DNA of 64,000 nucleotides. It comes from Isurus oxyrinchus. Its lineage: Eukaryota. The notes below the pieces were generated by a model. It was given only the letters and a program-made list of their open reading frames with translations. It did not search any database and was not told the DNA's origin. Positions 4,601-63,434 of this stretch are shown piece by piece. A program made the translations under genes and the position numbers. The stretch spans positions 159,340,001-159,404,000 of the forward strand of contig JANJGN010000005.1 in the NCBI GenBank assembly GCA_026770705.1, given 5' to 3'. The first letter of the stretch is position 1; every line of letters begins with the position of its first letter.

Positions 4601-6508
4601 CCAAGCTGGCCATAGCACTTGTGTCTGCAAATGGCATTGATAAATAAGAGTTGTGTCCATAGCTATATTTGTATAGCAAGCCAATAATGTATAGCTTTTT
4701 GTTTCCATTTTTAATATTCCCAAAGTATAAGATTACTGCAGATTTCATTTTCACACCCAGTATTAGGATGATTTAATCTGTGTCCAGATACAACATAATC
4801 CAGCGGCAGGACAAATCTCTCTCTTTTCTATGCCTGATAATAAATCTTAATCCCAACCTTAGAGCAAGAACGACTATTGTGCTCAGGATGGTTACTCTTG
4901 GACTCTCTCAATTAAGATTGTTTATTTGTATGGATTATGGGAGGTGGGTGTTATCTATTATTTTAGGAGTTTGGAATGGAGTACCAGTATGTTTATAATA
5001 AAGAGGGAGGTGGATGCCTGTGCTTAATAAAGTGAGAGCTCCTTAACCCAGGACGTGTAAAGGCCGGTTGAGTCTCTATATCATTTGGCTGTTGGTGAAA
5101 TTGCAACTTTGTTCAGGTAATTTGGAGGTCAGTTTTTGAGGATGATTATAATCCACGCACCTTGGAATTTGCAATATTTAACAAGTAGAATTATTACAAG
5201 CACTCCCCTTAGTCTCAATCTGAATGTGGAGTGTCAAGGTGACTGTGTGTGTTGTACAGGGTAATTTACTGTATTGATCTTGATTGTGAATAGTAATTTG
5301 GAATACCTGGTGATGCTTGTACAGTAGAAATTTCTAACAAGTAATTATCAAGTGTTCATCACTTCTGATTATTAGCTGGCTAAATACACTGTCTACTGTA
5401 TGATAAATCATGCAACTTGCATATTAATACTTGTGTGAAAGTGTGCTACCATGTCAAAGTCTCCAAGAACTTGACGCAATGATGTGCACTGGCTTGTGTC
5501 TTATTTTGCAACAGAGCAATATGGGCAGAAAAGGCTGTGAATGATGCAGATGTTGATTATTAAAGCTAGAAAATAACTATTTTATAAGAGATAAATGGGC
5601 ATTAAATCAATAGGCACAGCGCCATTGACAGTCTTGAGACTAATTACATAGAATATGGATGCATATTGTTATTAGGAATGTCTAGATCAAAAATATGAAT
5701 GGAAATACTTGAAGCAATACAATAAGGTCTCAACCAAACCACTTAATTCCTGTAATTAAGTCTACACTTCTAAAGGTGGTTCACAAAATTTCACACAAGG
5801 TGTTATAAGCGTGTAAGTACCTTCTTTGAAGCAAGGTCATATCTTCAAAGTAAATGTGGATGATATGTTTTATGAAAGCAATTGCTTAATTTCTAGTTGC
5901 TTCATTTCTTTGAACATGGCGAAAGCTGAAAACCCAGTGGTGAAAGTTGAAGATATTGGGACAACTTGTGTCTAAAATTCATGTTTTTTTATTTGTTCAT
6001 GGGAGATGTGCGTCGCTGGCAAGACCAGCATAGCCCATCTTTAATGGCCCTTGGTGTGTGATTTGGGGGAGAGAGGAGCTTGCAATTTATGCTGTTCCCA
6101 CGCATCTGCTGCCCTTGTCCTTCCACATGAAGCAAGTTGTGTGTTTGGAAGGTGCAGCTGAAGGAACCTTCACGAGTTGCTGCAATGCATCTCATAGATG
6201 GTAAACACTGCTGCCACTGTGTTCAAGTGATGGAGGGAATGAATGTTTAAGGTGGTGGATGGGCTACTAATCCAGTGGGCTGCCTTGACCTTTTTTTGTC
6301 GAGCTTCTTTAGTATTACTGAAACTGGGCTCGTCTTCCTGACTTGTGCCTTGTAGATGGTGGACAGGCTTTGGGGATTCAGGAGGTGAGTTAATTGCTAC
6401 AGAGTTCCCAGCTTCTCAAAGATAAAACGAAAAAACTGCGGATGCTGGAAATCCAAAACAAAAACAGAATTACCTGGAAAAACTCAGCAGGTCGGCGGAG
6501 AAGAAAAG

Positions 6509-6547
6509 AGTTGACGTTTCGAGTCCTCATGACCCTTCGACAGAACT
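6509..6547 (-). ncRNA. minimal hammerhead ribozyme-like motif (variant core CUGUCGA)
   Basis: Reverse complement reads agtt CTGTCGA a gggtc atgag gactc GAAAC GTC aact. Confidence 0.6.
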
Positions 6548-6951
6548 TGAGTTCGAGTCCAAGAAAAAGTTGAAATATAAGCTGGTTTAAGGTGTGTGTG
6601 TGGTGGGCGGAGAGATAGAGAGAGAGAGAGAGGTTGGGGGGGGGTTGGGGGGTGGTTGTATGGACAAACAAGCAGTGATAGAAGCAGATCATCAAAAGAT
6701 GTCAACAACAATGGTACAATAGAACACATAGGTGTTAAAGTTAAAGTTGGTGATATTATCTAAACGAATGTGCTAATTAAGAATGGATGGTAGGGCACTC
6801 AAGGTATAGCTCTAATGGGGGTGGGGGGAGCATAAAAGATTTTAAAATATTTAAAAATAATGGAAATAGGTGGGAAAAGAAAAATCTATATAATTTATTG
6901 GAAAAAAAAGAAAGGGGGAAACAGAAATGGGTTGGGGATGGGGGAGGGAGC

Positions 6952-8380
6952 TCACGACCTAAAGTTGTTGAATTCAATATTCAGTCCGGAAGGCTGTAAG
7001 GTGCCTAGTCGGAAGATGAGGTGTTGTTCCTCCAGTTTGCGTTGGGCTTCACTGGAACAATGCAGCAAGCCAAGGACAGACATGTGGGCAAGAGAGCAGG
7101 GTGGAGTGTTAAAATGACAAGCGACAGGGAGGTTTGGGTCATTCTTGCAGACAGACCGCAGGTGTTCTGCAAAGCGGTCGCCCAGTTTACGTTTGGTCTC
7201 TCCAATGTAGAGGAGACCACATTGGGAGCAACGAATGCAGTAGACTAAGTTGGGGGAAATGCAAGTGAAATGCTGCTTCACTTGAAAGGAGTGTTTGGGC
7301 CCTTGGACGGTGAGGAGAGAGGAAGTGAAGGGGCAGGTGTTATATCTTTTGCATGGGCATGGGGTGGTGCCATAGGAGGGGGTTGAGGAGTAGGGGGTGA
7401 TGGAGGAGTGGACCAGGGTGTCCCGGAGGGAGTGATCCCTACGGAATGCCGATAAGGGGGGTGAAGGGAAGATGTGTTTGGTGGTGGCATCATGCTGGAG
7501 TTGGCGGAAATGGCGGAGGATGATCCTTTGAATGCGGAGGCTGGTGGGGTGATAAGTGAGGACAAGGGGGACCCTATCATGTTTCTGGGAGGGAGGAGAA
7601 GGCGTGAGGGCGGATGCGCGGGAGATGGGCCGGACACGGTTGAGGGCCCTGTCAACGACCGTGGGTGGAAAACCTCGGTTAAGGAAGAAGGAGGACATGT
7701 CAGAGGAACCGTTTTTGAAGGTAGCATCATCGGAACAGATGCGACGAAGGCGAAGGAACTGGGAGAATGGGATGGAGTCCTTACAGGAAGCGGGGTGTGA
7801 GGAGCTGTAGTCGAGGTAGCTGTGGGAGTCGGTGGGTTTGTAATGGATATTGGTGGACAGTCTATCACCAGAGATTGAGACAGCGAGGTCAAGGAAGGGA
7901 AGTGTCAGAGATGGACCACGTGAAAATGATGGAGGGGTGGAGATTGGAAGCAAAATTAATAAATTTTTCCAAGTCCCGACGAGAGCATGAAGCGGCACCG
8001 AAGTAATCATCGATGTACCGGAGAAAAAGTTGTGGACGGGGGCCGGAGTAGGACTGCAACAAGGAATGTTCCGCATACCCCATAAAGAGACAAGCATAGC
8101 TGGGGCCCATGCGGGTACCCATAGCCACACCTTTTATTTGGAGAAAGTGAGAGGAGTTGAAGGAGAAATTGTTCAGCGTGAGAACAAGTTCAGCCAGACG
8201 GAGGAGAGTAGTAGTGGATGGGGATTGTTCGGGCCTCTGTTCGAGGAAGAAGCTAAGGGCCCTCAGACCATCCTGGTGGGGGATGGAGGTGTAGAGGGAT
8301 TGGAAGTCCATGGTGAAGAGGAAGCGGTTGGGGCCAGGGAACTGGAAATTGTTGATGTGACGTAAGGTGTCAGAGGAATC
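6952..8380 (-). pseudogene. Penelope RT (C-terminal half) plus GIY-YIG endonuclease, 5'-truncated, one frameshift near 7890
   Basis: LFTMDFQSLYTSIP, GVAMGTRMGPSYA, FLRYIDD, FLDL, NLVYCIRCSQCGLLYIGETKR, GLN motif. Confidence 0.92.
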
Positions 8381-9011
8381 TTGCGGTCTGTCCGCAAGAA
8401 TGACCCAAACCTCCCTGTCGCTTGCCATTTTAACACTCCACCCTGCTCTCTTGCCCACATGTCTGTCCTTGGCTTGCTGCATTGTTCCAGTGAAGCCCAA
8501 CGCAAACTGGAGGAACAACACCTCATCTTCCGACTAGGCACCTTACAGCCTTCCGGACTGAATATTGAATTCAACAACTTTAGGTCGTGAGCTCCCTCCC
8601 CCATCCCCACCCCATTTCTGTTTCCCCCTTTCTTTTTTTTCCAATAAATTATATAGATTTTTCTTTTCCCACCTATTTCCATTATTTTTAAATATTTTAA
8701 AATCTTTTATGCTCTCCCCACCCCCTTTAGAGCTATACCTTGAGTGCCCTACCATCCATTCTTAATTCGCACATTCGTTTAGATAATATCACCAACTTTA
8801 ACTTTAACACCTATGTGTTCTATTGTACCATTGTCGTTGACATCTTTTGATGATCTGCTTCTATCACTGCTTGTTTGTCCATACAACCACCCCCCCCCCA
8901 ACCCCCCACCACCCCCACCCCCCCCAACCTCTCTCTCTCTCTATCTCTCCGCCCAGCACACACACACCTTAAACCAGCTTATATTTCAACTTTTTCTTGG
9001 ACTCGAACTCA

Positions 9012-9050
9012 AGTTCTGTCAAAGGGTCATGAGGACTCGAAACGTCAACT
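9012..9050 (+). ncRNA. minimal hammerhead ribozyme-like motif (degenerate core CUGUCAA)
   Basis: agtt CTGTCAA a gggtc atgag gactc GAAAC GTC aact. Confidence 0.55.
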
Positions 9051-9317
9051 CTTTTCTTCTCCGCCGATGCTGCCAGACCTGCTGAGTTTTTCCAGGTAAT
9101 TCTGTTTTTGTCCCAGCTTCTCAATGCTGTTGTTACCACAGTATTTATCTGGCTGATACAGTTAAGTTTCTGGTCAATGGTAACCCCCCAAGATGTTGAT
9201 TGTGGAGGGATTCAGTGATGTCAGTTCACCAAAACTTGGGGTTAATGGTTAGATTTGCTGTTTTTTTTTAAATCGTATTATTTATATTGATATATAACCA
9301 GTTGATTGGTAGTAAGA

Positions 9318-9497: not shown

Positions 9498-10445
9498 TTA
9501 ATAAATAAATAAATTTCAAAGAGTTGGCACAGGAAAGATGAGCCAAATGGCCCTCTTCTGTGCTGTATGATTCTTTGTTTTTTTAAGGTTGGAGGATAAT
9601 TTTGGGATCTTGCGCTTGCAGGGAATGGTGGCCATTGTTCTCACACATCTACCTGGGCTATCTTAAGCAGTGACATTCTCACTGGGTATGTGACTTAATT
9701 CCAGAGGTTGCCACAGGACTATAGATTTTTTTCCCCCATGTTTTTCCCATCCCTCTTTCTTGTTAAAGCATGGATCTTAACGTAGTTTGCCAATGACAAG
9801 ACCTTGAGAGGTCTCCTACTTGACATAAAATAGCAAAATTTGTGTGAAGTAGTATGTGGGAGGAAATCTGTTTGCACTTGTGAATTTTTAAAAGTAATCA
9901 TTCAGCCCTGCCTATGCTTCACATTTAAGATATGCCACTCCCACTACTTCTCTTGCCACTGTCCACCTGAATGCTCCTCACTTGACACTGCATTTGTAAT
10001 CAAACTGTGAGCAGGAAGGAGAGCTTTGTGTTTGTTAACTTGAAAGATCTCTACAGAAGAAATCCATCAATAAACAAATTATTAAGTCTTCTGGTGATCA
10101 TTGTTTTAAAATACTTTGCAGATTTGTGCAGGTATTTTTGAAGAAAAAGTAGTTGGTCATGTACAAATTGTGTAAACTTTGTGGTGCTCTTGAGAGTGAC
10201 AGATGGTAATTTTGCATACAAATTGTTGTGGTAGTGTTGAAGAATCTATACCATATGTCATGTTCCTAAAGCAACAATGCAATACACTCAGAACTGAGCA
10301 GCGCTGTTGTATTAGCAGTTTTATTCTTCAGAGGAAAATAGTTCTCCGGTTTAGCTTTATGTATTTGAATTAAATATATCTAAACCATTAACTTGTCCCA
10401 TTTGACCTGCATAAAAGGTCATGGATAAATATCAATAACTGTTAC

Positions 10446-10541
10446 AATAAAAACAAAGTGCTGGAAATATTCAGCAGGTCTGGCAGCATCTGTGGAAAGA
10501 GAAACATAGTTAATGTTTCAAGTCAAATATAACTTTTCTTA
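10446..10541 (-). mobile_element. solo Penelope 3' terminus
   Basis: gctggaaatattcagcaggtctggcagcatctgtggaaagagaaac is shared with the other Penelope ends; 12-bp TSD aataactg(t/c)tac at 10434-10445 and 10542-10553. Confidence 0.75.
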
Positions 10542-38272: not shown

Positions 38273-39179
38273 GTTACATCTTCTTGATTGGATACAGGTG
38301 TGCCTCGCTGCTGCCTGAGCTGTGGCTGTGGCTGGAGATGGAAGGAGCCAGGAGCTGCTGCTGTTGTTGCTCTTCTCTAACATCATTGGACTCTTGTCTG
38401 TTTTCAGACCCTCCAGACTCTGTACAACTGTTGCTGCTACTACTCAGAAGACAGCCTCCCAGTAAAACCTGCTGCTGCTTATATTAGGGCTGCAGGGCCA
38501 TGGAGCCTGCAAGGCCTGAAGCCTACTAAGGAATTGGAGGAGAGAGAGTGAAGACAGTGCTGCAAGACGGAGAGGCCAGGAGGCAGGCATTTAATTACAA
38601 ATACCAGAGGTGGGTGTCTGAGCTCCTGTTTGGTGGGGGCCAAAGAGATGTCATGTGCTTTATGGGGTGAGGACAAGGAAACTTGAAAGACCTGGGGAGA
38701 TGGGGTTTCTCTGTGCTCTTAGCCCCCCAGCCCCCTCCTTCCCTCCTCCCTTTGTGCTCAAGTCCAGGTAGCTGGTGCTGCCTGGCGAAGAAGGATTACG
38801 CTGGCTTCTCTGTGCCAGGCAGTGCCGGCTGCCTGGTGAAGGTATCATTGCCCTCCCCAAAGCCCACCTTACTAGAAGAACAGCGGGCCCCCACCCCACC
38901 CCACCTAGAGATATCCACCCACCGTGCATCCTCTATTCTCTCCCTCCTGTGTCTCCCTGCCCTCCCCTCCCTATTTTACTACATAGAGGCCACACCATCC
39001 TTTTTCCCCTTTCCCCATAGTGGAATATAGGCATCAAAATCTGAAGGAGTTCAGGGTGGGTGTAACTCATCCCCTATGGCTGATGCAGAATCACCAGTGG
39101 CCAGGCCCTCCGGGTGACTGTGGAGGCAGATTCATCACTAGTGGCGGGGCCCCCCAAAAAAGCACATGCGGGAATAGCT

Positions 39180-39412
39180 AAAAGCAAAATACTGCGGGTG
39201 CTGGAAATCTGAAACAAAAACAAAATTTGCTGGAAAAACTCAGCAGGTCTGACAGCATCTGTGGAGAGATAGACAGAGTTAACGTTTCGAGTCTGTATGA
39301 CTTGAAGAAGAGTTCTGTAGAAGAGTCATACGGACTCGAAATGTTAACTTTGTCTTTCTCTCCACAGATGCTGTCAGACCTACTGAGTTTTTCCAGCAAT
39401 TTTTCTTTTTGT
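39180..39412. mobile_element. non-coding fold-back mini-Penelope element inserted in Tx1 copy 3
   Basis: Two inverted copies of the Penelope terminus; 13-bp TSD tgcgggaatagct at 39167-39179 and 39413-39425. Confidence 0.88.
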
Positions 39413-40805
39413 TGCGGGAATAGCTGCTTGTGTGGCCTCCTCTGCTCCTGCGGCCCCATCACCATTTTGCCTCCTGACCAGGGCCCTCAGGGTAAAGAGC
39501 ATCCCGCGACGACTATAAAAACAAGCATAAAGGTTTTGGCCAGAGTTGTCGGCCCCTCTGCCATCGTTGCAGCCTCGCACATGTATGGGAAGGTGGTGTT
39601 CTTCCTGAGGTCCGAGTGGGTCGTGCACCTGGCTCTTGCCAAGGAGCTCATCGTAGGCAGGACCTATTTGGCATTGGATCCTCTTGAGGCCACCGCAGAG
39701 GGGCTTATTTTATCCAATGTCCCGCCCTTCGTTCCCGATGAGCTCCTCCTCCACCACTTTCACCAACAGGAGGCGGTCAGGTCTAGGGTGGTGCCGATCC
39801 TGCTTGGCCCCAGGGAGCCCAGTCTCCACCACGTATATTCCTTCCGCCAGGCCCGGGAGGAGTGCACAGAGGAGCAGTTTGTTGTAACCTTTGAGGGGGC
39901 TGCCTACCACATCTTTTGGTGAGCAGACAGTGTGCGGTGCCATGCCTGTAAGGAGGTTGGGCATGTGCAGAAGAACTACCCTGCCTCAAAGGCCGCCAGC
40001 ACCACCCAGACAGCGACGGCTGGCACCGCCACACCTACCCCCCTCCACCACTCCATTTGCTTCCCCCCAGGGATCAGAGTTGCTGGCAGTGGAAGTCACC
40101 CTGTCCACCAGTGAGGCGGGGAAGGAGCATCCCGCAAGAAGAAGCTGCAGCAGAAGGCTAAGCATGCCGAGGCGGTTCCCAGCCCCAACTGCAAACCACA
40201 ACCCAATCCAAGACACCTTCTGCCATCAGCTCGGGGAGTGTTGACAGTTCCAGGCTCGGCATCGATCTTGCATGCGATCACAGGTCCGTAGGCACCTCAG
40301 CATAGAGTGTAGTGCCCGTCAGCCCCCGGGTCCGGTGACAGAGGTGCATGCATCCTTGAGCCAGTGATGGTGCTACAGTGGGTCAGAGCACCCAGGTCCC
40401 AGAGGGTGGGGAGCCAGGAGGAGGAAAGCGAGGAGAGGTGGGGCCTCCGACATAAAGGTATCCCCCACCCGACCCTCACCCGGAAGGGGCGCCAACCCTC
40501 GTGTCATGTGCAAGGTCAAGCATGCTAATCCCTCCCCCAGTAAAGAGGCAGCAGTGCCCTCACCCTCCCAACCCTGTGATCCTTCGCCCCACATTCTGGG
40601 AGACCAGGATGACACTGACTAGCTGCCACAGTGCCCTGAGCTGGGCACCTAGCAGGGTGGTTAGGGTGCAGCTATTCTGGCGGCACACTGCACGGAGCCA
40701 CCCCGTAACCCTGAGGCGCCTGCTGACTCATCGGGGGACTGCAATAGTGCCAGTGACGCTGGTTCATTGGGTGGTGGCGGCGAGGAAAGTCTCTCTTTCC
40801 CAACC

Positions 40806-47043: not shown

Positions 47044-47118
47044 AAATTAGTGCGCTGTGGAGCACTCTTCCATAAATTAACCATTCTTTAACAACCAAGT
47101 GATTAATCTTTAAGTTAT

Positions 47119-47157
47119 AGTTGACGTTTCAAGTAACTATGACCCTTCATCAGAACT
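47119..47157 (-). ncRNA. minimal hammerhead ribozyme motif (canonical core, eroded stem II)
   Basis: Reverse complement agtt CTGATGA a gggtc atagt tactt GAAAC GTC aact. Confidence 0.65.
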
Positions 47158-49132
47158 AAGACATATAGAAATGAGATGAAATATAAGCTGGTAGAAGGGG
47201 ATGGGACAGGAGAGCTCGTTAGGGGGCCAGTGATAGGTGGAGGCCAAGAAGAGACTGCCAAAGATGTCATAGACAAAAGGACAAAGGGGTCTTGATGGTG
47301 GTCTAAAGGATGTGCTAATGGGGACATTAAGGGAAGCAAGCTAGTGGTAGATAGCCCTAGTGTGGGTGGGGTGGGGGGAAGGGATCAAAATGGGCTAAAA
47401 GGTGGAATTGAAACAATAGATCGAAATAAATTTAAAAATAGGAGGTAAAAGAAAAAATATAGTGTAAAAAAATGATAAATTATTGGAAAAAGGGGGATCA
47501 GAAAGGGGGTGGGAATGGAGGAGAGAGTTCATGATCTGAAATTGTTGAACTCAATATTGAGTCCAGAAGGCTGCAAAGTGCCTAGTCGGAAGATGAGGTG
47601 CTGTTCCTCCAGTTTGCGTTGATCTTCACTGGAACATTGCAGCTGGCCAAGGACAGACGTGGGCATGAGAGCAGGGTGGCGTGTTGAAATGGCAAGCGAC
47701 AGGGAGGTCTGGGTCATGCTTGCGGACAGACCGAAGGTGTTCTGCAAAGTAGTCACCCAGTCTGCGTTTGGTCTCTCCAATGTAGAGGAAACTGCATTGG
47801 GAGCAGCAAATGCAGTAGACTAAATTGAGGGAAGTGCAAGTGAAGTACTGCTTCACTTGAAAGGAGTGTTTGGGCCCTTGGATGGTGAGGAGGGAGGAAG
47901 TAAAGGGGCAGGTGTTGCAACTTCTGTGGTTGCATGGGAAAGTGCTGTGGGCGGGGGTTGAGGTGTAGGGGGTGATGGAGGAGTGGGCCAGGGTGTACCG
48001 GAGGGAATGATCCCTGGGGAAAGTCACCAGGGGGAGTGAAGGGAAGATGTGTTTGGTAGTGGCATCATGCTGGAGTTGGCGGAAATGGTGGAGGCTGCTG
48101 GGATGATGAGTGAGGACAAGGGGGACCCTATCATGGTTCTGGGAGGGAGAGGAAGGTGTGAGGGTGGATGTGCGGGAGATGGGCCAGACATGATTGAGGG
48201 GCCCTGTCAACCACCGTGGGTGGAAAATCTCGGTTAAGGAAGAAGGAAGACATGTCAGAGGAACTGTTTTGGAAAGTGGCATCATCAGAACAGATGCAAC
48301 GGAAGCGAAGAAACTGAGAGAATGGGATGGAGTCCTTACAGCAAGTGGGGTGTGAGGAGCTGTAGTTGAGGTAGGCTTGTAATGAATATTGGTGGACAGT
48401 CTTATTACCAGAAATTGAGACTGAGAGGTCAAGGAAGAGAAGGGAAGTGTCAGTGATGGACCACGTGAAAATGATGGAGGTGGAAATTGGAAGCAAAATT
48501 AATAAATTTTTCCAGATCCAGACAAGAGCATGAAGTGGCACCGAAGCAGTCATCGATGTACCGGAGAAAGAGTTGTGGGAGGGGCCTGAGTAGGAGTGGA
48601 GCAAGGAATGTTCCATATACCCCATAAAGAGACAGGCATAACTGGGGCCCATGCCCCTTTTTCCAATAATTTATAATTTCTTTTACACTATATTTTTTTC
48701 TTTTCCCTCCTATTTTAAAATTTATTTTGATCTATTGTTTCATCTCCACCTTTTAGCCCATTTCGATCCCTTCCCCCAACCCTACCCGCACTAGTGCCAT
48801 CTGCCACTAGCTTGCTTCTCTTAATGTCACCATTAGCACATCCTTTAGATAATATCACCACCGTCAACACCCCTTTGTCCTTTTGTCTATGACATCTTTA
48901 GAAGTCTCTTCTTGGCCTCTACCTATTACTGGCCCCCTATCGAGCTCTGCTGTCCCACCCCCTCTACCAGCTTATACTTCATCTCATTTCTATATGTCTT
49001 AGTTCTGATGAAGGGTCATACGGACTCGAAACGTCAACTGTATCCCTCTCCACAGATGCTGTCAGACCTGCTGAGTTTTTCCAGGTATTTGTGTTTTTGT
49101 TCTAGATTTCCAGCATCCGCAGTATTTTGCTT
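47120..49132. mobile_element. Penelope-like element B, inverted fold-back (long - arm 47120-48653, short + arm 48654-49132)
   Basis: 17-bp TSD ttaatctttaagttata at 47103-47119 and 49133-49149; RT and GIY-YIG remnants MGPSYACLFMG, FLYIGETKRRL, GLNIEFNNFRS. Confidence 0.92.
49001..49039 (+). ncRNA. minimal type I hammerhead ribozyme motif, best-preserved copy
   Basis: agtt CTGATGA a gggtc atacg gactc GAAAC GTC aact: stem I agtt/aact, 5-bp stem II, GUC triplet, no stem III loop. Confidence 0.8.
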
Positions 49133-49713
49133 TTAATCTTTAAGTTATATATACCTTCAGATCTCCTTAGTTTAGAATCAAGTTCCTTTTGGTTTCTGAT
49201 CATGCTGTTAGCTTGTGAGCATCCTAATTCATTTAATAATTTAAAAAGATTTCTCTCTCAAAAACAATAAGTAAAGGATTATCTCCCCTGTTCTGACTGA
49301 AGAACCAGTAACTTCCTACCTGCTTTTCTTATGAGCCCTTTCCAACAACTGTGTTTCTAAACATTTGTAAAAAAAAAAGGTGTTGAAGATTGGACTGAGC
49401 ATTTATTTTTCAGTGATGCTAACTTCTTGTGTATCTGTTTAAACATCTTAACCTTGATTTATTGCCACAAAGATGATAATTGCACAATTTAGATACAAGT
49501 AGCATTCTTCAGTTGGGTGGTGAATTGAAGTAAATTACAATTATAGCACACATCGTTCAGTGCCATGATTTTCACACAATGGGCCAGATCTTCCATTTAA
49601 AAATAGCGGGGAACTTTGCAACAGCCGCCATTGTTGTGCACTGGCGGCCAGAGGAAGTCCCACTGTTCGCACACATGGTACTAGCGTGTGAACCTTAAAG
49701 TTCCTTTGGGCAG

Positions 49714-50871
49714 TGTCACGACTCACAGGGGATTGCGCACTGTAATATCAAGCCCCATTGTTCCCCAAGGGGTGACAAATGTGAAGTTTGACCAAACCAC
49801 CAGATTGCCCCAATTCTACCTGTTTAATTTAGGTTAACAGAATACGAGCACCAAGTTCGTAAATTTAATAAGTAAATAACTGCTTATTGGACAAATTATC
49901 TTTAAGTAATGGCAAAAGAAAGAAATATGAACTGCTAATGTCTACACTACAACTTAAACTCTACCCCCTTTTTCAATCCCTATACACTCTCTCTCTCTCT
50001 TTCTCTCTCTCACACACATACACACAAGATATACAAAACCTGGATTTTAAGAGTGGGATAAAACAGTTTAATAGCATCAATCCGGGGTACAGGATTTGAT
50101 GGGTTGATTTTGATCGATGTCTTCGAAATTCCAGAAAGTCCTGGACGAAGGGAGCTGCCTGATAACAGCATTTTAATTGGCTCTTGATCAGGTGACCAAG
50201 ATTTTGTGTGAAGAGCAGGGCAGCACAAAGCTCTTGGCCTGCAAAGAGAAAACACCTAAAATCTCTATTTCTCATATCTCTATAACCTGCTCTTTCTCTG
50301 AGGAAACCCCTGTAAAGAGGCCAATGGAAAAACCACTGTTAGAGACATTGAAAAGCAAGATCTCAACCAGTGAACTAAATACTGAAAATGCTGGAAGACC
50401 ACCTTGTGTCATCAACAAGAACTGAAAGGAATTTGTCTTATCCTGTCTTTCATGGCACACTCTGTTCCAGAGCTGCAACATATATATCTCTCATCCTGTT
50501 CCAGTGGACATGCCTTTCAACCTGCATCCATTGTAATTTCAATTCCCAGTCCAACAGAAAATAAAAATATATGTTCTTTACAACAGTCCAACAGAAAGAA
50601 AAAGAGATAAAAACAAAAAAACTGCGGATGCTGGAAATCCAAAACAAAAACGGAAACAGAATTACCTGGAAAAACTCAGCAGGTCTGGCAGCATCGGCGG
50701 AGAAGAAAAGAGTTGATGTTTCGAGTCCTCATGACCCTTCAACAGAACTAGTCATGAGGACTCGAAACGTCAACTCTTTTCTTCTCCGCCGATGCTGCCA
50801 GACCTGCTGAGTTTTTCCAGGTAATTCTGTTTCTGTTTTTGTTTGAGAAAGAAAAAGATATGTTCCTTACA
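49714..50871 (-). repeat. 3' LTR (contains a mini-Penelope insertion and an inverted segment)
   Basis: tgtcacg...tgttccttaca, homologous to 58881-59767. Confidence 0.9.
50606..50845. mobile_element. non-coding fold-back mini-Penelope element inserted in the LTR
   Basis: 13-bp TSD agaaagaaaaaga at 50593-50605 and 50846-50858; the other LTR shows the empty site near 59745-59760. Confidence 0.9.
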
Positions 50872-51040
50872 TGCCTCCACCTTTAAAAGAGATGATAAGC
50901 TATTTCAAAAATGTGTTTCATCACAAGGTATGTGACACGTGGACTACAAAACACGAGACTACTTTCATTCACCCTTCCTCCCCCCTATGCAATCTTATAC
51001 AATCTTCAGCATTTCTTACTCCTTTAACTTCTTTAGTATT

Positions 51041-51590
51041 TTACACTTGGGCCAATGCATTCATGATCACATTATCTTTGCCAGCAATATGAGCAATCTT
51101 TACATTGAATAATTGAAACAATAGACTCCATCTAAATAGTCTCACATTTCGAATTTTAAACTTTTCAATGAAAACCAGCAGATTATGGTCAATGTCGATT
51201 AGTGTTGCTTTGTTATTTTTGTTGGACATAAACTTCAAAGTGTTGAAGAGACAGCAACAATGCTAGAGTTTATTTTTCTACTGTAGAGTACTTCCTCTGA
51301 TATTAATTTAGTTTCTTGGAAAAGTACCCCACTGGCTTCTCTATCCTTAATTTATCGCCTTGTAATAGGACTGCACCTACCCCCAAGTCGCTAGCATCAG
51401 TTGCCATTTTAAAAGATTTGGTAAAGTCAGGGGGGCCATCACTGGTTCATTTATTAAGATTGCTTTCGCCTTTTCAAAGGCTGCTTGGCATTCTGCTGAC
51501 CATAGCACTTTTGCCTGTTTTCTTAACGAATTGGTGAGAGGTACAGCTATTGTGCTGAAGTTAGGCACAAACTTCCTAAGTAACCTTATT
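51041..51590 (-). pseudogene. RT thumb/connection and RNase H remnant of the Gmr1 element
   Basis: RKFVPNFSTIAVPLT...WSAECQAAFEKAK; DHNLLVF...RLFRWSLLFQLFNVKIAHIAGKDNV. Confidence 0.85.
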
Positions 51591-51699
51591 AGATCTTCCC
51601 ATGGTCTTTCCTTAAACATGAGAACACAGTGTTTAACTGTCCCAGTATTGTACTGGCTTAGTCGAATTGTAGGAGGTTCTCTTTCTCCTTCTATCTACT

Positions 51700-52900: not shown

Positions 52901-55497
52901 GCCTCAGCTTCAGTGCGAGCTGACTGTGCTAACTTGTTTAACTTTGGATCTGCTTTCTGAGCCTCAATTAATGAAAACATGCCAAACACTTCCTTTGAAT
53001 TATCCTCATCCGTAAAGAAAGTTTCGGCTACTCTAACATTTGATCGTGGTATTACTTTGATTTCTGGTGATGGACTTTGTTTAGCTCTGGTCACCACACA
53101 TGATGGAAAAATACCAGGAAACAACTTCTTGTAACAGCTTGGCCTCTTCAGCCTCTTTTGGACTTTTCCTTATGATGGGCAAAGTTATCACTGCTGCCAA
53201 ATCATTCCCCAAGAATAAATCAACTTGATCCAAGGGTAATTTCTTAACCACTCCTACAAACACCGATCCAGATGACAAATCGCACTCCAATTGCACTTTG
53301 TACATTGGAACTAGGATATGCTCTCCCATTTACTTATCCTGTTTACCAATATTTTAGCTTTCATTGAACTCTCTGGAGGGAAAACTAGGCCCTTCTCCAG
53401 CAAAAGAGTTTGAGCTGTGTCCCTTAATATAGTTATGGGTTTGGCTGCATCATTTGATGAAAAAGAGGTTACCTTTTCTTTGGACAAAAACCCTTTATAT
53501 CTCTCAATTACCTTATTCACTTCACTTGCATTCACAGCAGTGTTTACCTCTAGAACCTTATTTGTAGTTAAAGCTACAAGTTGATCTGTGGCATTTTCTT
53601 TTTAAGTTCCCTTTCCTGACTCACTCTTATGAACTCCAATAAGTCCCATGGGCTTCCCTTGCAACTTCCAGCATTCTGAACAAGTATGTCCCACTTTATT
53701 ACAATGGAAACATTTGGGCCTTTGGGTTTCACCTCTACCATCAGTACCTTCCTTCCTGGTCTGGAGAGGAATTCTCAAGGCCTTCCCAGCTATCCATTCT
53801 TTACCCTGGCTTCTTGCCCTCATTTCACTCTCCCACTTTCTATACTTTTCAAATGTACGAGGGCGATGGAAAAATGTTTTAGTTTCATGGATGAGCTCAT
53901 AATCATCAGCCGTTACTGCTGCCTGTCTAACAGTTATAACCCTTTGGTCTTCAACATGGGTTCTTATTACAGAAGATGGGGAGTTTTTAAATTCTTCCAA
54001 GAAAATGGTCTCTCTCAGAACTTCATAGGTTGTTTTAACTCTTAATTCTCATATCCATCTGTCAAAGCTACTTTGCTTAATTCTTTCAAACTTAATGTAA
54101 GTTGCCCAGGCTGTTTCCTTAAATTTTGAAACTTTTGTCTGTATGCTTCAGGTACCAATTCATATGTACTCAAAATAGCTTTTTACGCCACATCATAATC
54201 CCTAGAAACCTCCTCTGACAGTGAAGCATAAATTTCCTGGGCTCTACCTGTCAATTTGCTCTGCATGGGTAATGTTTAGATTTCCTTTGACCAGTTCATC
54301 TGTTTAGCTATCTTCTCAACTGAAATAAAGAATGCTTCAACATCCCTTTTCACAAACTTCAGAAGAGCCTGCACAAATTTAAACATCTCCCCACTGGGTT
54401 CTGATCTTGAAATAAGTCTCACCCCACCCACTGGTGTCTCTTTTTTAACTGCCGGCATTCTAAGCTGGAATTCTCTGTCTCTGTCTCTGTCTCCCTTTCT
54501 CTTTCCTCCTTTTCTAACCTTGCTATTTCTAATTCCCTTTCTTGTTTTCTTTCTCTCTCCTGCCTTTCTGTCTGTTCCCTTTGAAATGATCTTTCTTTTT
54601 CTGCTGCCTCTAGTTCCAATTTTTTAATTTGCAACTGAATTAACATAGTGCGAAAGGAGGTACTAGCGGGTTTAGCGGCCTTAAAAGTGGATAAATATGC
54701 AGGCCCGGATGAGGTGTATCCCAGACAGTTGAGGGAGGCAAGGGAAGTGATATCGGGGCCCTGGTAGTTATTTTCAAATTCTCTCTGGCCACAGGTGAGT
54801 TGGCAGAGGACTACTAACATTGTCCCATTATTAAAAATGGGAGCGAGGGATAGACCAGGAAATTACAGGCCGGTCAGTCTAACCTCAGTGGTGGGGAAGC
54901 TACTAAAAAGAATTCTGAGGGACAGAATACATCTGCACTTGGAGAGATATGGATTAATCAGGGATTGCCAGCATGGATTTGTTAAGCGAACGTCGTATTT
55001 GACAAATTTGAATTTTTTGAGGAGGTAACCAGGAATGTCGGCGAGGGTAATGCGTTTGATATAGTCTACATGGACTTTAGCAGGGCTTTTGATAAAGTCC
55101 GTCATGGCAGGCTGGTCAAGAAACTAAAAGCCCATGGGATCCAAGGCAAAGTGGCATGTTGGATCCAAAATTGACTGAGAGGCAGGAAGCAGAGGGTGAT
55201 CGTAGAGGGATGTTTCTGTGACTGGAAGTCTGTTTCCAGTGGGGTTCCACAGGGCTCGGTGCTGGGACCCTTGCTGTTTGTGGTGTATATAAATGATTCG
55301 GACTTAAATGTAGGGGATATGATCAAGAAGTTTGCGGATGACACGAAAATTGGTAGGGTAGTAAGTAGTGTGCAGGATAGCTGTAAACTGCAGGAAGGAT
55401 ATCAATGGACTGGTCAGGTGGGCAGAACATTAGCAAATGGAATTCAAGCTGGAAAAATGTGAGGTAATGCACTTGGGAGGGCTAACAAGGCAAGGGA

Positions 55498-57260
55498 TTG
55501 TTGGCCCCTTAGAGGACAAGACTAGGGAGTTAATAGTGGGGAATGCAGAAATGACAGAGATGCTTAATCAATATTTTGCCTCAGTTATCACAGTGGAGGA
55601 CACTAGTACCACCCCAATAGTAACAGTGCAGAGGGTACAGAGAAGGAGAAACTTAGGACAATCACCATCACTACAAAAAAAAAGTACTGAGCAAACTATT
55701 GGGATTAAAGGGTGACAAGTCCCCAGAACCTGATGGCCTACATCCTAGGGTCTTAAAGGAAGTGGCAGCAGAGATAGTGGATGCATTGCCTATAATATTC
55801 CAAAATTCCCTGAATTCTGGAAAGGTTCCAGTGGATGGAAAAATGCTAATATTCAAAAAGTGGGGAGGCAGAAGGTAGGAAACTATAGAGCAGTTGGTTA
55901 ACGTCCGTCATTGGGAAATTGTTGGAATCCATTATGAAGGAAGTAGTAATGGGACATTTGGAAAGTCAAATTGCAAACCATCAGAGTCAGCATAGTTTTA
56001 TGAAGAGTAAATCATGTTTGACTAAGTTGCTAGAGTTTTTTGAAGATGTGACAAGCAAAGTGGATAATGGGGATCCTGTAGATGTATATCTGGACTTCCA
56101 GAAGGCCTTTGACAAGGCACCACACAAAAGATTAATACACAAGATAAGATCACACAGAGTTAGGGGTAATATATTAGCTTGGATAGAGGATTGGCAGAGA
56201 GTGGGGATAAATGGTTCTTTTTCTGGATGGCAAGCTGTAACTAGTGGGGTGTCACAGGGTTCGGTCCTTGGGCCCCAACTATTTACGATCTATATTAATG
56301 ACTTGGACTCAGGTAGAAGGTACTATAGCTAAATTTGCAGATGACACCCGAATAGGTGGGAAAGTAAGTTGCAAGGAAGAAATAAGAAATTTACAAATAG
56401 ATATGGACAGGTTAGGTGAATGGGCCAAAATTTGGCAGATGGAGTTTAACGTGGATAAGTGTGAGGTTATCCATTTTGGTCAGAAGAATAAAAAGGTGAC
56501 TTATTATTTAAATGGAGAGAAACTTCAGAATGCTTCAGTGCAGAGGAATCTGGGTGTCCTCGTGCATGAATCGCTGAAAGCTAGTATGCAGGTACAGCAG
56601 GTAATAAGGAAGGCAAATGGAATTTTGGCATTTATTGCAAAAGGAATAGAGTATAAAAATAGGGAAGTATTGCTGCAACTGTACAAGGCATTGGTGAGAC
56701 TGCACCTGGAGTACAGTGCACAGTTTTGGTCCCCTTACTTGAGGAAGGATATAGTTGCACTGGAGGCACAGAGGAGGTACACTAGATTAATTCCAGAGAT
56801 GTGGGGCTTGACTTATGAGGAGAGATTGAACAATTTAGGCCTATACTCATGAGAGTTTAGAAGGATGAGAGGAGATCTAATTGAGGTATATAAGATACTA
56901 AAGGGGATAGACAAGAGTAGACGTGGAGTGGATGTTTCCCCTTCTGGGGCATTCTAGAATGAGAGGCCATAATTTTAGGCTAAGGGGTGGTAGATTTAAA
57001 TCGGAGATGAGGAGGAATTACTTTTCTCAAAGGGTCGTGAATCTGTGGAATTCACTACCTCAGAGTGCAGTGGTTACCAGGACGCTGAATAAATTCAAGG
57101 AGATAGACAGATTTTTAAATAGTATTGGTTGAAAGGTTATGGGGAGAGGGCGGGAAATTAGAATTGAGGCCAAAATGAGATCAGCCATGATCGTAATGAA
57201 TGGCGGGGCAGGCTCGAGGGGCTGAATTCCCTACTTCTGCTCCTAGTTCTTATGTTCTTA
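55498..57260 (+). mobile_element. nested CR1 LINE with ttcttatg-type tail
   Basis: [38 protein letters not shown]; tail gttcttatgttctta. Confidence 0.85.
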
Positions 57261-57432
57261 TTACACTATGAATGGTAGGAGCCTGGAATGTACTGAAGAT
57301 CAGAGGAACCTTGGTGTGCATATCCACAGATCGCTGAAGGTAGCAGGGCAGAGAGTTAAGTTGGTTAAGAAGGCATATGGGATACTTGCCTTTATTAGCC
57401 GAGGCATCAAATACAAGAGCAGAGAGGTAATT

Positions 57433-57960
57433 ATCTGGTCGCCACATTACCAGGAGGACATGGAGGCATTGGAGAGGGTGCAGAGGAGGGTTACCAGGAT
57501 GCTCCCTGGTAATAACCTCATGAGGAGAGGTTGGAGAAACTTCGATTGTTGTCACTAGAACAACAGAGATTGAGGGGCGACTTGATTGAAGGTTACAAAA
57601 TTATGAGTGGCACGGACAGAGTAGATAGTCAGAAGCTTTTTCTCAGGGTGGCAGAGTCAATTACTAGGGGACATAGATTTAAGGTGAGAGGAGAAAACTT
57701 TAGAGGAGATGTGTGGGGCAAGTTTTTATGCAGAGGTTAGTGAGTGTCTGGAATTCGCTGCCAGAAGAGGAGGTGGAAGCAGGTATGAAAGTGGTGTTTA
57801 AGAGGCAGCTTGACAAATTCATGAATAGGATGGGAATAGAGGGATACGGACCCCGGAAGTGCAAAATGTTTTAGTTTGACAGGCAATATGGTCGGCGCAG
57901 GCTTGGAGGGCCGAAGGGCCTGTTCCAGTGCTGTACTTTTCTTTGTTCTTTTGTTCTTTG
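57433..57960 (+). mobile_element. nested CR1 3' fragment with ttctttg-type tail
   Basis: WSPHYQEDMEALERVQRR, TRGHRFKVRG; tail ttctttgttcttttgttctttg. Confidence 0.82.
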
Positions 57961-58856
57961 TTATGCTGGAACTATATAAAATGCTGGTTAGCCAATAACT
58001 GGAGTATTGCATGCGGTTCTGGCCGCCACATTATAGGAAGGATGTGATTGCAATGGAGAGGTGCAGAGGAGATTTACCAGGATGCTGCCTGGGCTGGAGG
58101 GCCTGAGCTATGAGAAAAGGTTGTTTTCCTTGGAGCAGCGAAGGTTGAGAGGGGACCTAATAGTGGTGTTTAAGATTATGAGGGGCATAGATAGGGTGGA
58201 TAGGAAGGCACTTTTTCCATTAGTAAAGGGGTCATTACCAGGGGGCATAGATTTAAGGTAAGAGATAGAAGGCTAAAAGGGGAGTTGAGGAGAATTTTTT
58301 TTATCCAGATGGTGGTGGGAGTCTGGAACTCACAGCTAGAAACGTTGGTTAAGTCAGAAACTCTCGTAACATTTAAGAAGTATTTAGATATTCACTTGCG
58401 TTGCTGTAGCCTCCAGGGCTATGGGCCAAGCGTTGGAAAATGGGATTAGTGTAGTTATATCTTTGTTGACTGGCATGGACATGTTAGGCTGAATGGCCTC
58501 CTGTGCTGTAAACACCTTTGAGTCTGTGAATTTGAGCTCATTACAATGAACCGCCCCTTGGAGAACTCGGTGTCTCAGGTATTCCTTTCGATTTCAAATG
58601 CTGTGCCATCACTTTGATTATCTCTGCCTTCCTAGCTTTCGCAGGCAATGCTACTCTTTATTTACTTGCCAATTCAATTCTCCTGGCCTTTGGGAACCCT
58701 TATAAAATCATCAGGAGCATCTCTTCCACTTACAGGAAAGCTTTAGCAGTTTCCAGTGCTATCTTATTTTTGATATTACAAACCTGGTGTTTCCTTTTAG
58801 CTTTTATTACTTACTAAATCTACACCCAATCCTTGTTGGTCTTTTGTTCCAAAATA

Positions 58857-58876: not shown

Positions 58877-58880
58877 ACCT

Positions 58881-59767
58881 TGTCACGAATTCCTGGGGAT
58901 GGTGCACTGTAGTATCAAGCCCCATTGTTCCCTGAGCTGTGACAAACGTGAAAAGTTTAACCAAACCATCAAATTGTCCCAATTCTACCTAACTGTTTAA
59001 TTTAGGTTAACAGAATACGAGCACCAGGTTTATAACTTAATAAGTAAATAACTATTTATTACAAATTGTCTTTAGTGGCAAAAGAAAGAAATATGAACTG
59101 CTAACTTCAAACATCAAAACTTAAACTGTACCTCCTTCTTAAATCCCTACACACACACACATGATACACAAGATGCACAAAACATGGATAGTAAGGTTGG
59201 AATAAAACAGTTCAATAGCACCAAACCGGAGTACAGAATTTGATGGGTTGATTTTGATTGATGTCTGCCAAATTCTTTTCAGTTCTTGTTGATGACACAA
59301 GGTAGTCTTCCAGCACTTTCAGTATTTAGTTCACTGGTTGGGATTTTGCTTTTCAATGTCTCTAATAGTGGTTTTCCCCTTTCCCTCTTTACAGGGGTTT
59401 CCTCAGAGAGAGGGAGAAAGAGCAGGTTATAGAGACATGAGGAACAGAGATTTTAGATGTTTTCTCTTTGCAGGCCAGGAGCTTTCTGCTGCCCTGCTCT
59501 TCACACACAACATTGATCACCTGGTCAGCAGCCAATTAAAACACTCTTGCCAGGCAGCTCCCTTGGTGCAGGACTCTTTTCCAGCATCATCCTGTCTTAC
59601 ATGGCACACTCTGTTCAGGGGCTGCAACATTGTATATATATCTCATCCTTTTCCAGTGGACATGTGCTTCATGGAGGCCATTGTAATTTTAATTCCCAGT
59701 CCAACAGAAAATAAAAATATTGTTCTTTACAATAGTCCAACAGGAAGAAAAAAAGATGTTCCTTACA
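58881..59767 (-). repeat. 5' LTR
   Basis: tgtcacgaattcc...tgttccttaca, homologous to 49714-50871. Confidence 0.9.
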
Positions 59768-60019
59768 GCAGAGATACACTGCCTGAGTCCCTGCGTAGAT
59801 CCTTCTGAATTAATCCCAATGCCACCATTGTCAACCTGGGCTACATTGGGCTAGTTGCCCAGAAATTTACACTTTTTTTCCAGGATTAATCTTTAATCGC
59901 AGACATGGGATTTAGATGAGAAATGATTTATAGTAGAAGTTGTATTGGGAAGGCCTTTTTCTTCTAAAATTATTCTTAAAAATACACTTGCTGAACAATC
60001 CCATCTCCACCCATCCTCC

Positions 60020-60312
60020 ACACAAAACTGTGGAAACACAGAAATGTAATTGGTTCTGAGTAAGTGAAAGGGAGGAAGAAAGAACAAAAGGGAAGATCTG
60101 TAATAAGGTGGAGAGCAGACGAGATTAAATGGCAAAGGGAGTAGTAATAGGTAAAGTAAAGATACAAAAAGTATGTTCAGATGAGGTGCAAATGACTGTA
60201 TAGGATCCATGAGAAGTGAAGGAATAAAGAAAGAAATTAAATAAAAACTGCGCCAACCAAAAAAAGAACAAAATTGAAGCAGAAGTTATGATCTAAAATT
60301 GTTAAACTCAAT
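60020..60312 (-). mobile_element. older Penelope 3' remnant, target of element C (resumes at 63421-63432)
   Basis: Rejoined flanks atgatctaaaattgttaaactc(g)atgttgagttcaga encode the LNIEFNNFRS C-terminus on the - strand. Confidence 0.6.
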
Positions 60313-63300
60313 AAAAGCAAAATACTGCGGATGCTGGAAATCCGAAATAAAAACAGAAAATACTGGAAAAACTGAGCAGGCCTGACAGCATCTGTGGAGA
60401 GAGAAACAGAGTTAACATTTTGAGTCCGTATGACTCTTCTTCAGAGCTAAAGACAAGTAGAAAGTGATGGAATTTATACTGTTTAAGGGGTGGGTGGAGC
60501 AGGTAAAGCAGGATAGAAGGTCAATAATAGCTAGGAGCTAAGGAAAGATCGACAAAGATGTTATGGACAAAAGACAAAGGCAGTGTTAATGGTGGTGGTA
60601 AGGGCTGAAGAAGGTGGTGATCGTGGCATAAAGGTAAGAAAGTAGAATGTATGAATGGCAGAACAAGAGTCAGAACTCTTGTGAAAGAACAGCATAGAAC
60701 AAATGACAGATGGCCCTTTTGGGGTGCAGTGAAAGTGGGACCTGTGGTTGGGGGAAAAAAGATAGAAAAAGGGGGTTAAAAGGGATAAAACAATGAATAA
60801 AAATAAGCAAATAAATACATTTTTAAAAGGGATTACAAAAGGGGTGAAGATGGAGGAGCGAGTTCAATGTATTTCAGGTTCGGCACAATGCTGAACTCTC
60901 CTTCCACTGCCTTCGTCTCCATGCTCACTTCTTTGGGCAGGAATCCTCCCCAGTTCAACGGATCCTTTCACCCACCTCCAAGTAACTTCCCTCCACCTGA
61001 ACCCCTCCCTCTGGCCTCTTACCTGCTCTTGATCTTTTCATTGAGAATTTTGACACGATATCAGCTGTCTCAATTTCTCCGCTCCTCTCCACCATTCTAA
61101 CCTGTCTCCTTCTGAACTTGCTGCACTCCGTTCTCTCAGAACCAACCCTGACTTTGTTATCACCATTGGTGGTGCTGTTGTTGCCTGACGTACTGACCTC
61201 TACCTCGCAGTGGCTGAGTGCCAACTCTCAGACACTTCCTCCTACCTCCCCCTGGACCGTGACCCCACCACGGAACATCAAGCCATTGTTTCCAGGAGCG
61301 TCACTGACCTCATCTCCTCTGGAGATCTTCCCTCCACAGCTTCCAACCTCATATTCTCCCAACCCCAGACCTCCTTTCCAAAATCCACGATCAGGACTGT
61401 CCCAGCAGACTGATCGTGTCAGCCTGTTCATGCCACACACAACCCATTTCTTCCTATCTTCACTCCATTCTCTCTCCCCTTGTCCAGTCTCTTCCCACCT
61501 AACATCTGCAATTTCTCTGATGTCTTACACCATATCAACAATTTCCAGTTCCTTGACGCTAGCCACCTCCTCTTCACCATGGATGTCCAATCCATCTACA
61601 TCTCCATCCCCCACCAGGATGGTCTGAGGACACACCACTTCTTCCTTGAAAAGTGGCCTAAACAATCCCCATCCTCCGCCTGGCTGAACTTGTTCTCTCA
61701 CTGAACCATTTCTCCTTTAACTTGTCTCACTTCCTCCAAATGAAAAGTGTGGCTATGGGTACCTGCATGGGCCCCAGTTATGCCTGTTTCTTTCTTTATG
61801 GGGTATGTGGAACATTCCTTGTTCCAATCCTATTTGGGCCCCCTCCCACAGCTCTTTTTTTGGCTTATCAATGACTGCATCAGTGCCACTTCACACACTC
61901 TTTTGGACCTGGAAAAATTTATCAATGTTGCTTCCAATTTCTGCCCTTCTATCATCTTCATGGTCCATCTCTGGCACTTCCCTTCACTTCCTTGACCCCT
62001 CTGTCTCAATTTCTGGTGATCGACGTCCACCAAGATTTATTGCAAGCCCACTGACTCCTACAGCTCGTCACACCCTGGTTCCTGTAAGGACTCCATCCTT
62101 TACTCTCAGTTTCTTCACCTCCGTCACACCTATTCTGATGATGCCATCTTCCAAAACGGCGCTTCTGACATGTCTCCCTTCTTCCTTGACTGAGGTTTCC
62201 CCCACACTATAGTTGACAGGGCCCTCAGCTGTGTCCCCATCTCCCGCACCTCTGCCCTCACACCTTACCCTTTCTCTCAGAACCATGTAGGATCCCCCCT
62301 TGTCCCTACCAGCCTCCGCATTCAAAGGATCATTCTCTGGCATTTCTGCCAACTCCAGCATGTTGCCACCACCAAACACGTCCCCCACCCCCCCACTCCC
62401 GTAAGCAGCCATTCCTTCCGGAACACCCTGATCCAGTCCTCCTTCACCCCAACACCTCATCCCCTTCCCACAGCACCTTCCCATGCAATCGCAGCAGATT
62501 CAACACCTGCCCCTTTACCTCCTCCAACCTCATCGTCTTAAGAGCCCAAACACTCCTTTCAGGTGAAACAGCGCTTCATTTCCACCTCCCTCAATTTAGT
62601 CTACTGCATTCGCTGCTATCAATGCAGTCTTCTCTACATTGGGGAGACGAAACGCAGATTGGGTGACCACTTTGCAGATCACCTTCGGTCTGTCCTCAAG
62701 CATGACCCAGACCTTCCTGTCACTTGCCATTTCAACACACTATCCTGCTCTCATGCCCACATGTCCATCCTTGACCTGCTGCAATGTTCCAGTGAAGCCC
62801 AACATAAATTGAGGAACAGCACCTCATCTTCTGACTGGGCAATTTACAGCCTTCCAGGCTTAACATTGAGTTCAACAACTTCAGACCATGAACTCTGCCC
62901 TCCATTTTCACCCCTTTTTAAAATTTATTTTTATTTACTTATTTTTATTTATTTATTCATTGTTTAATCCCCTTTTTATCTCCTTTTTATCCATTTTCCT
63001 ATCCCTTTTCCCCAACCACCACTCCCTCACACCAAAAAGGGCCATCTGTCACTTGCTCTATTTTGTTCTTTCACAGAGTGCTGACCTTTGTTTTGCAATT
63101 CACACATTCTGCTTTCTTACCTTTTATGCCACTATCAGCATCTTCTTTAGCCCTTACCACTGCCATTAGCACTCCCTTTGTCTTATGTCCATGACATCTT
63201 TGTCAATCGCTCCTTAGCCGCCACCGATTGCTGACCACCTATCCTGCTTTAGCTGCTCCAACTCCCTTAAACAGTATCAGCTCCATCGCTTCCTACTTTT

Positions 63301-63405
63301 GTTTAGCTCTGAAGAAGGATCTTATGGACTTGAAACGTTAACTATTTCTCACCCCACAGATGCTGTCAGACCTGCTGAGTTTTTCCAGCATTTTCTGTTT
63401 TTATT
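60313..63405. mobile_element. Penelope-like element C, inverted fold-back (short - arm 60313-60866, long + arm 60867-63405)
   Basis: 15-bp TSD attgttaaact(ca/tg)at at 60298-60312 and 63406-63420; LFTMDVQSIYISIP, LLYIGETKRRLGDHFADH; hammerhead-like motifs at 60410-60448 (-) and 63305-63343 (+). Confidence 0.9.
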
Positions 63406-63434
63406 ATTGTTAAACTTGATGTTGAGTTCAGAGA

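Follow-up and report, generated by a model that had tools for sequence, protein, structure and literature searches.

Inverted Penelope-like pairs in Isurus oxyrinchus carry one tail within one target-site duplication and may be primed from both nicked target ends

Penelope-like elements (PLEs) form the sister group of telomerase and attract interest as enzymes for RNA-templated gene writing. In the twin priming of L1 retrotransposons, the RNA in use at the first target nick also serves the second one, which primes at an upstream position that varies, and this leaves an inversion of non-overlapping arms within one target-site duplication (TSD), with microhomology at the joints. The typical Penelope structure has been described as adjacent inverted pseudo-long terminal repeats (pLTRs) in one TSD with an optional 31-bp tail at one end, the head-to-head arrangement being the most frequent and self-priming being proposed for its origin (PMC3846280). 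The same structure was reported across clades, and the origin of the tandem and inverted forms was called unresolved (PMC8557442). The protein of the Poseidon element PAc of Anolis carolinensis cleaves each of the two strands and extends it, with copying that begins at two internal RNA sites bounding the tail; PAc is predicted to be a dimer, and a hammerhead lies near the start sites (PMC11167929). Here we describe five inverted pairs of a Penelope-like element in a 64,000-nucleotide window of I. oxyrinchus (contig JANJGN010000005.1, positions 159,340,001 to 159,404,000), together with a census of the element in the same genome (4.98 Gb). It is directly established that a pair is a single event within one TSD, from one source lineage and with one tail, and that the 5' ends are coupled; on balance we consider it probable that each pair is one insertion in which both nicked target ends prime on one common RNA, at two sites separated by about 35 nt.

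By self-BLAST, an inverted-repeat search and reading of the sequence, five head-to-head pairs (A, B, C and the mini pairs m1 and m2) were found in the window, each consisting of a minus-strand arm followed by a plus-strand arm, with both arms ending outward at the element 3' terminus (Table 1). The arm-to-arm identity over aligned bases is 98.7% for A, 92.1% for B, 85.1% for C, 92.1% for m1 and 97.9% for m2. A has the full terminus on its long arm, B and C have it on the short arm, and the tail-less partner ends 29-36 nt early in A, C, m1 and m2 and about 97 nt early in B. Since the TSD caller scored only 33 of 2000 random position pairs as positive, the TSDs at all five window pairs are not due to chance. 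An earlier note on this stretch had described five head-to-head pairs, each within a single TSD, with the complete terminus on one arm, long or short, and an earlier stop on its partner, and this layout was confirmed in every part by the searches and the TSD caller. Its remark that the arms overlap from their 3' ends, unlike those of L1-type twin priming, was also borne out, as was its statement that inverted pLTR layouts are known for Penelope, which agrees with passages of PMC3846280 and PMC8557442.

The census covered 154 stretches, among them 114 of 10 kb that were anchored and two blocks of 200 kb taken arbitrarily. The anchored sets comprised 39 B-type stretches (tail-agnostic), 39 A-type stretches (tail required) and 36 young A-type stretches (internal segment as query; 33 after collapsing a segmental duplication), and they are biased towards the queries because they represent the best 40 scored candidates per search, of 1536, 1621 and 209, respectively. 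L127, L128 and L133 were excluded as segmental duplicates of L126. These four loci (L126, L127, L128 and L133 on the small contigs C365, C220, C112 and C70) are 97.7-99.3% identical over at least 10 kb, a stretch that takes in a full-length tandem copy, as in a segmental duplication or an array. L072, L073, L121, L129 and L134 continue into a downstream open reading frame (ORF) beyond the stretch, so that their far end falls outside it; L129 and L134 were excluded from the tail and 5'-end counts and included in the haplotype test of 48 pairs. The complex pairs L091, L104, L105, L117 and L132 entered the tail tally and stood outside the 5'-end test of 54 simple pairs, the table for which was curated by hand from BLAST ends, a few 3' ends being corrected where BLAST had entered the TSD.

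Pairs accounted for 16/39 B-type, 26/39 A-type and 17/33 young A-type loci, and their share, when corrected for the double sampling chance of a pair, was 29% (B) and 36-45% (young A). Among unanchored copies, from the blocks and flanks, 29/103 were pairs (20/38 among TSD-bearing copies), and this 28% share is probably low because many of the TSD-less singles are old or only partly matched by the references. Pairs are thus a major integration mode, with 28-53% of insertions depending on the sample, and not the default as the earlier note had supposed, single-arm copies with TSDs being at least as common. That note had also considered that fold-backs might be rare genome-wide or that their arms might have separate TSDs; pairs turned out to be frequent, with one TSD around both arms (median 14 bp, range 10-17, n = 51). 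Tiny second-arm stubs were sought in 41 TSD-flanked singles, of which none had one, and the 5' joints were ordinary, and therefore obligatory double priming is not supported.

The most regular property of the pairs is the distribution of the tail. When arm positions are numbered from the tail end as 0, with negative numbers upstream, each of the 76 pairs flanked by a TSD (15 of B type, 24 of A type, 17 of young A type and 20 unanchored) bore the tail on one arm and lacked it on the other, and the tail-less arm ended mostly at -27 to -43 and at times at -48 to -117. For independent 50:50 ends, the probability of this result in the 52 pairs that were sampled tail-agnostically is 2e-16, and independent site choice at each end is excluded. 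TSD-flanked singles had either form (anchored: 13 tailed, 10 tail-less, n = 23; unanchored: 12 tailed, 6 tail-less, n = 18), which indicates that both ends serve as start sites. A TTTCCAG...T-rich motif is shared by the two start sites, 29-35 nt apart, with slippage at each. It is supported that the outer junctions of each pair look like reverse-transcription start junctions, and this, together with the in vitro match in PMC11167929, supports the earlier proposal that both ends of a staggered cut prime reverse transcription. Either arm can be the longer one: of the 26 pairs with clearly unequal arms, 14 had the tail-less arm as the longer (15 of 28 before L063 and L106 were removed), and of the 20 with slightly unequal arms, 14 had a tail-less arm that extended further 5' (p = 0.12). 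At L107:6277-7612 and L132:3010-3345 (oriented), the tail-less arm contains its own 3' end a second time in tandem, a -281 to -34 stretch standing beside a -1182 to -32 stretch, as if copying had restarted at the same site.

The two arms of a pair also come from the same sub-lineage. At 35 non-CpG polymorphic sites in 48 pairs, discordance within insertions was 20/538 (3.7%), in contrast to 6497/15770 (41%) between insertions. Site -356, at which the arms differ in 15 pairs, was rejected as a two-template signal and removed before this count, since its rare allele is present in the query, lies always on the anchor arm and occurs on many haplotypes, as expected for an ascertainment artefact. 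Gene conversion was likewise rejected as the source of arm similarity: private variants were common to both arms in 18 cases and confined to one arm in 211, and the arm-to-arm distance is about the distance to the nearest other copy, so the match of the arms dates from insertion. The private divergence of the arms is 0.3-4% for A type and 4.5-10.7% for B type. Such divergence through private changes, the shared haplotype, the strict asymmetry of the ends and the single TSD around both arms all contradict an origin of the pairs from two independent insertions at one site, from later rearrangement or from long-read assembly artefact. This explanation could draw on the ability of the element to enter its own kind, as with C inside an older copy, and on the A junction, which was not bridged by the public contigs searched for it; it is already refuted by the census, and we give it almost no weight.

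A different explanation is that both nicks prime on two RNAs, for example transcripts of one locus paired via dimeric hammerheads, or two repeats within a tandem transcript. For minimal PLE hammerheads a dimeric action is assumed (PMC4209133), and two enzymes would not have to share one template. A single active locus per cell would match the haplotypes regardless; two RNAs from one locus would agree in single-nucleotide polymorphisms (SNPs) too, and SNPs alone do not separate the cases. The comparison of diagnostic SNPs that had been suggested for detecting two templates came out against them, with the low discordance within insertions given above, and no clear sub-lineage chimera was seen in the 48 pairs, though many haplotypes coexist. 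A few pairs (L107, L117 and L044) are candidate chimeras that this explanation would accommodate. Furthermore, symmetric partners predict tail/tail and none/none pairs, of which there were 0 among the 76 TSD-flanked pairs.

The 5' ends of the arms, which two RNAs would not be predicted to coordinate, were at most 25 nt apart in 26 of 54 simple pairs, whereas shuffling gave a mean of 4.7 pairs and a maximum of 14 in 100,000 shuffles. They were at most 5 nt apart in 14 of the 54 (null mean 1.6), and when the minis were left out, 17 of 44 pairs were within 25 nt (null 2.5). Coupled ends occur across the element, for instance at -632/-632, -564/-564, -1558/-1571 and -2311/-2326, with an overall range of -136 to -2326. 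This coupling argues against independent RNAs, although arm lengths are unrelated in about half of the pairs, as two RNAs would allow. The earlier suggestion of two independent RNAs or a multimeric or circular RNA therefore found no support in the shared haplotypes, the coupled 5' ends and the absence of tail/tail and none/none pairs among those with a TSD, and we regard priming on two RNAs as improbable.

Among short copies, whether pairs or TSD-flanked singles, the 5' ends form a pile-up at about -128 to -146, at the 5' edge of helix I of a candidate minimal hammerhead. The pile-up is seen at loci across the genome and in m1 and m2 of the window; a background copy at L098 breaks in this region twice, and both arms of L104 break at -147/-148. 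The candidate hammerhead lies at about -135 to -97, where a core and helices I and II can be made out by eye, and the motif is present in every arm that reaches that far, the core of A-type copies being a variant; an Rfam search gave no match to this hammerhead-like motif at the gathering score. Hammerhead cleavage, expected at about -101, was rejected as the cause of the main pile-up since the positions do not match. The pile-up could mark a splice site, a place at which the RT (reverse transcriptase) pauses or the start of an RNA, and in Drosophila virilis an intron end maps to hammerhead helix I (PMC4209133).

Of 46 head-to-head joints, 21 contained inserts, 14 had microhomology of at least 2 nt, 7 were blunt and 4 shared 1 nt. 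Inserts were favoured at equal-end joints (14 of 22), and microhomology of at least 2 nt was more frequent at unequal joints (11 of 24 vs 3 of 22 equal-end joints; p = 0.03); the tests of these preferences, with p = 0.03-0.04, were selected once the data had been seen. A non-autonomous palindromic unit, similar to a miniature inverted-repeat transposable element (MITE), was rejected because the centres differ among 25 short pairs and the other pairs compared; for annotation, this means that the short palindromes are one-off insertion scars and not a MITE family. In fold-back copying, one nick would prime a tailed cDNA, the 3' end of which would fold back or jump onto its own strand, be extended to about -35 and join the other target end, and deletions in the middle of the palindrome would make the arms unequal; Arkhipova et al. 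2013 proposed self-priming, which might use an antisense template. Equal 5' ends and shared haplotypes would follow with no further assumption, some centres are palindromes or hairpins of the template, the inserts in 14 of 22 equal-end joints could be loops, and PMC3846280 interprets junction palindromes as self-priming. However, TSD-flanked tail-less singles are common, yet no pair among 76 is tail-less on both arms; each longer tail-less arm, in 14 of 26 unequal and 14 of 20 slightly unequal pairs, would need a later deletion; the centres of L093 and L120 are 0-1 nt long, with no template hairpin; and the copy must stop exactly at an independent start site. We consider fold-back copying rather unlikely as the origin of the pairs, but still a serious rival and likelier than priming on two RNAs.

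Priming of both nicked ends on one RNA could proceed as follows. The enzyme would nick both strands about 14 bp apart, creating two free 3' ends, each of which would prime on one shared RNA, one per start site. A protein dimer may hold this RNA, with one subunit at each U-rich start site, and the trailing RT would displace the leading cDNA. Near-equal arms would be produced when both run to a common stop (the RNA end, a break or a pause) or, alternatively, when the trailing enzyme switches onto the 3' end of the leading cDNA. An early stall of either RT would give unequal arms, joined through microhomology, and annealing of the second nick to the end of the first cDNA would give an ordinary single-arm copy. 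A more specific version, which we put forward tentatively, is a programmed twin priming in which a dimeric RT-endonuclease sits on two tandem motifs of one RNA, one per nick, while the trailing RT first displaces the leading cDNA and then uses it as a template, with about a third to half of integrations completing the process. If true, this would give the tail, the inverted pLTR and second-strand synthesis in one step.

Several observations weigh against priming of both ends on one RNA. The coupled ends and shared haplotypes are predicted equally by fold-back copying of one cDNA, and hairpins or palindromes of the template lie at some joints (L082, L104 and a background mini in L101). The tail rule is broken by L106 (tail/tail) and L063 (none/none), neither with a TSD, among 12 TSD-less pairs. 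The haplotype contrast is weaker in the older B set (8/42 within vs 171/367 between insertions), and L107, L117 and L044, which differ at 3-5 shared sites, are possible two-template chimeras. In 26 simple unanchored pairs, mostly minis, the 5'-end coupling was slight and at best barely significant (p = 0.05-0.28); the unanchored minis all end near -134. Moreover, the offsets of near-equal 5' ends centre at 0 to +5 nt and not at +35, so a dimer moving in lock step is not supported. The mechanism is deduced, for this family, from sequence data, and strand displacement by the Penelope RT is assumed, being borrowed, like template jumping, from R2-type enzymes. In vitro, the PAc start sites did not differ between strands (PMC11167929), and thus a strict one-of-each coupling is not shown for PAc.

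By its sequence features, the element is an endonuclease-bearing (EN+) Penelope-like retrotransposon with a linker of Neptune/Nematis type, and the family is not tied here to any named element. The window arms encode pieces of RT and GIY-YIG, the latter scoring slightly under the Pfam cut-off. An intact copy in the same genome (L095:1153-3933) has 926 codons from stop to stop, with RT (RVT_1, E 7e-08) and, C-terminally, GIY-YIG (E 9e-04, 19.9 bits, below the 22.6 cut-off). Its protein contains a DKG motif (ADKGG) and two cysteines between GIY and YIG (VYCIRCSQCGLLYIG), as in a CCHH finger, which have been given as EN+ Penelope-like features (PMC8557442). The linker joining RT to EN carries CPRKRCNTC, that is CX4CxxC; a CX2-5CxxC zinc-finger linker marks Neptune and Nematis and is absent in Penelope and Poseidon (PMC8557442). 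Neptune is favoured over Nematis only because this clade has been reported from fishes (PMC4209133), the placement being made by features and not by an RT tree. Further EN+ traits are the optional 30-40 nt tail, seen as bimodal 3' ends, the inverted 5'-truncated copy, the TSD, and a partial tandem (pLTR) upstream of full-length copies at L095, L105, L110, L130 and others.

The positions of the pairs in the window are given in Table 1. The ORF of the long arm of A is disrupted by a frameshift, and at 6493-6494 this arm is without about 10 bp that are present in the short arm and in other copies. C (flanks 59790-60311 and 63406-63430) apparently entered an older Penelope copy of antisense orientation at its ORF-end motif, and this is the kind of target used in vitro in PMC11167929. 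Large exons with low-density lipoprotein (LDL)-receptor-type and CUB-like repeats lie at 1984-3138 and 20276-21139 (+). These exons may be LRP12-like, and A and the solo stub would then be intronic in this gene. Three related degraded retrotransposon copies, 65-81% alike, occupy 26196-44383 (+), m1 being inserted in one of them; they are presumably L1/Tx1-like. Stretches at 24176-25197, 44769-46076, 49714-54862 and 55275-58457 look like fragments of Harbinger-type transposon genes, a degraded long terminal repeat (LTR) retrotransposon and RT pieces of CR1/L2 type. Repeats of the degraded LTR-retrotransposon-like fragment are at 49714-50608 and 58881-59757.

Table 1. Penelope-like features of the window (positions in the 64,000-nt stretch)
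Feature	Position	Strand	Remarks
A left TSD	6406..6419		14 bp; TSD caller
A long arm, 5'-truncated, full tail	6421..8380	-	RT C-half, thumb, zinc linker, GIY-YIG, 3' untranslated region, hammerhead-like motif
A head-to-head junction	8381..8381		one untemplated base; other copies diverge at 8380 and 8382
A short arm, tail-less	8382..9110	+	ends at -36
A short-arm minimal hammerhead-like motif	9012..9050	+	variant core; candidate read by eye against the description in PMC4209133
A right TSD	9111..9124		
Solo tail-less stub, same family	10444..10540	-	unpaired
m1 mini pair	39167..39425		13-bp TSDs 39167-39179 and 39413-39425
m1 tail arm	39180..39302	-	filler of about 8 nt between arms, locally repeated
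m1 tail-less arm	39311..39412	+	
B left TSD	47103..47119		17 bp
B long arm	47120..48654	-	ends about 97 nt before tail end
B short arm, full tail	48656..49132	+	
B right TSD	49133..49149		
m2 mini pair	50593..50858		13-bp TSDs 50593-50605 and 50846-50858
m2 tail arm	50606..50749	-	
m2 tail-less arm	50751..50845	+	
C left TSD	60298..60311		11 bp without mismatch; 14 bp if 2 mismatches are allowed
C short arm, full tail	60312..60866	-	
C long arm, tail-less	60864..63405	+	about -2635 to -33; degraded ORF
C right TSD	63406..63419		

The layout of the pairs is itself known and ordinary for Penelope, and priming on both strands has an in vitro precedent; what is added here is the frequency of pairs, the rule of one tail, the shared sub-lineage of the arms and the coupling of their 5' ends. 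A literature search of titles, abstracts and passages returned no paper in which tail exclusivity, arm haplotypes or the coupling of 5' ends is counted, and older statements of this kind may exist. The measured constraints make the open origin of the Penelope inverted repeats testable at the bench, as a choice between one RNA and two and between two nicks and a fold-back. L046, L056, L095 and L125 contain an internal inversion that does not reach the 3' end, with no TSD detected, and in three of them the inversion lies mostly upstream of the main arm, nearer to L1-type twin priming. The pairs differ from L1 twin priming in that their second site has a constant place, about 35 nt away from the first, and one stretch is copied into both arms. 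They resemble Pen2a_Av of Adineta vaga in the inverted 5'-truncated neighbour, the TSD around the whole unit, the 30-40 nt tail at one end and the pLTR tandems, but the TSD has a median of 14 bp here and 8-10 bp in the Adineta examples; in the available accounts of Adineta the tail is termed optional, and self-priming or the resolution of an intermediate by the endonuclease is proposed. With PAc the element shares an RT with a C-terminal GIY-YIG, two start sites that define the tail and, if the candidate motif is one, a hammerhead nearby, whereas PAc belongs to the Poseidon clade, which is without the zinc linker, and inverted inserts are not modelled in the passages available from the PAc study.

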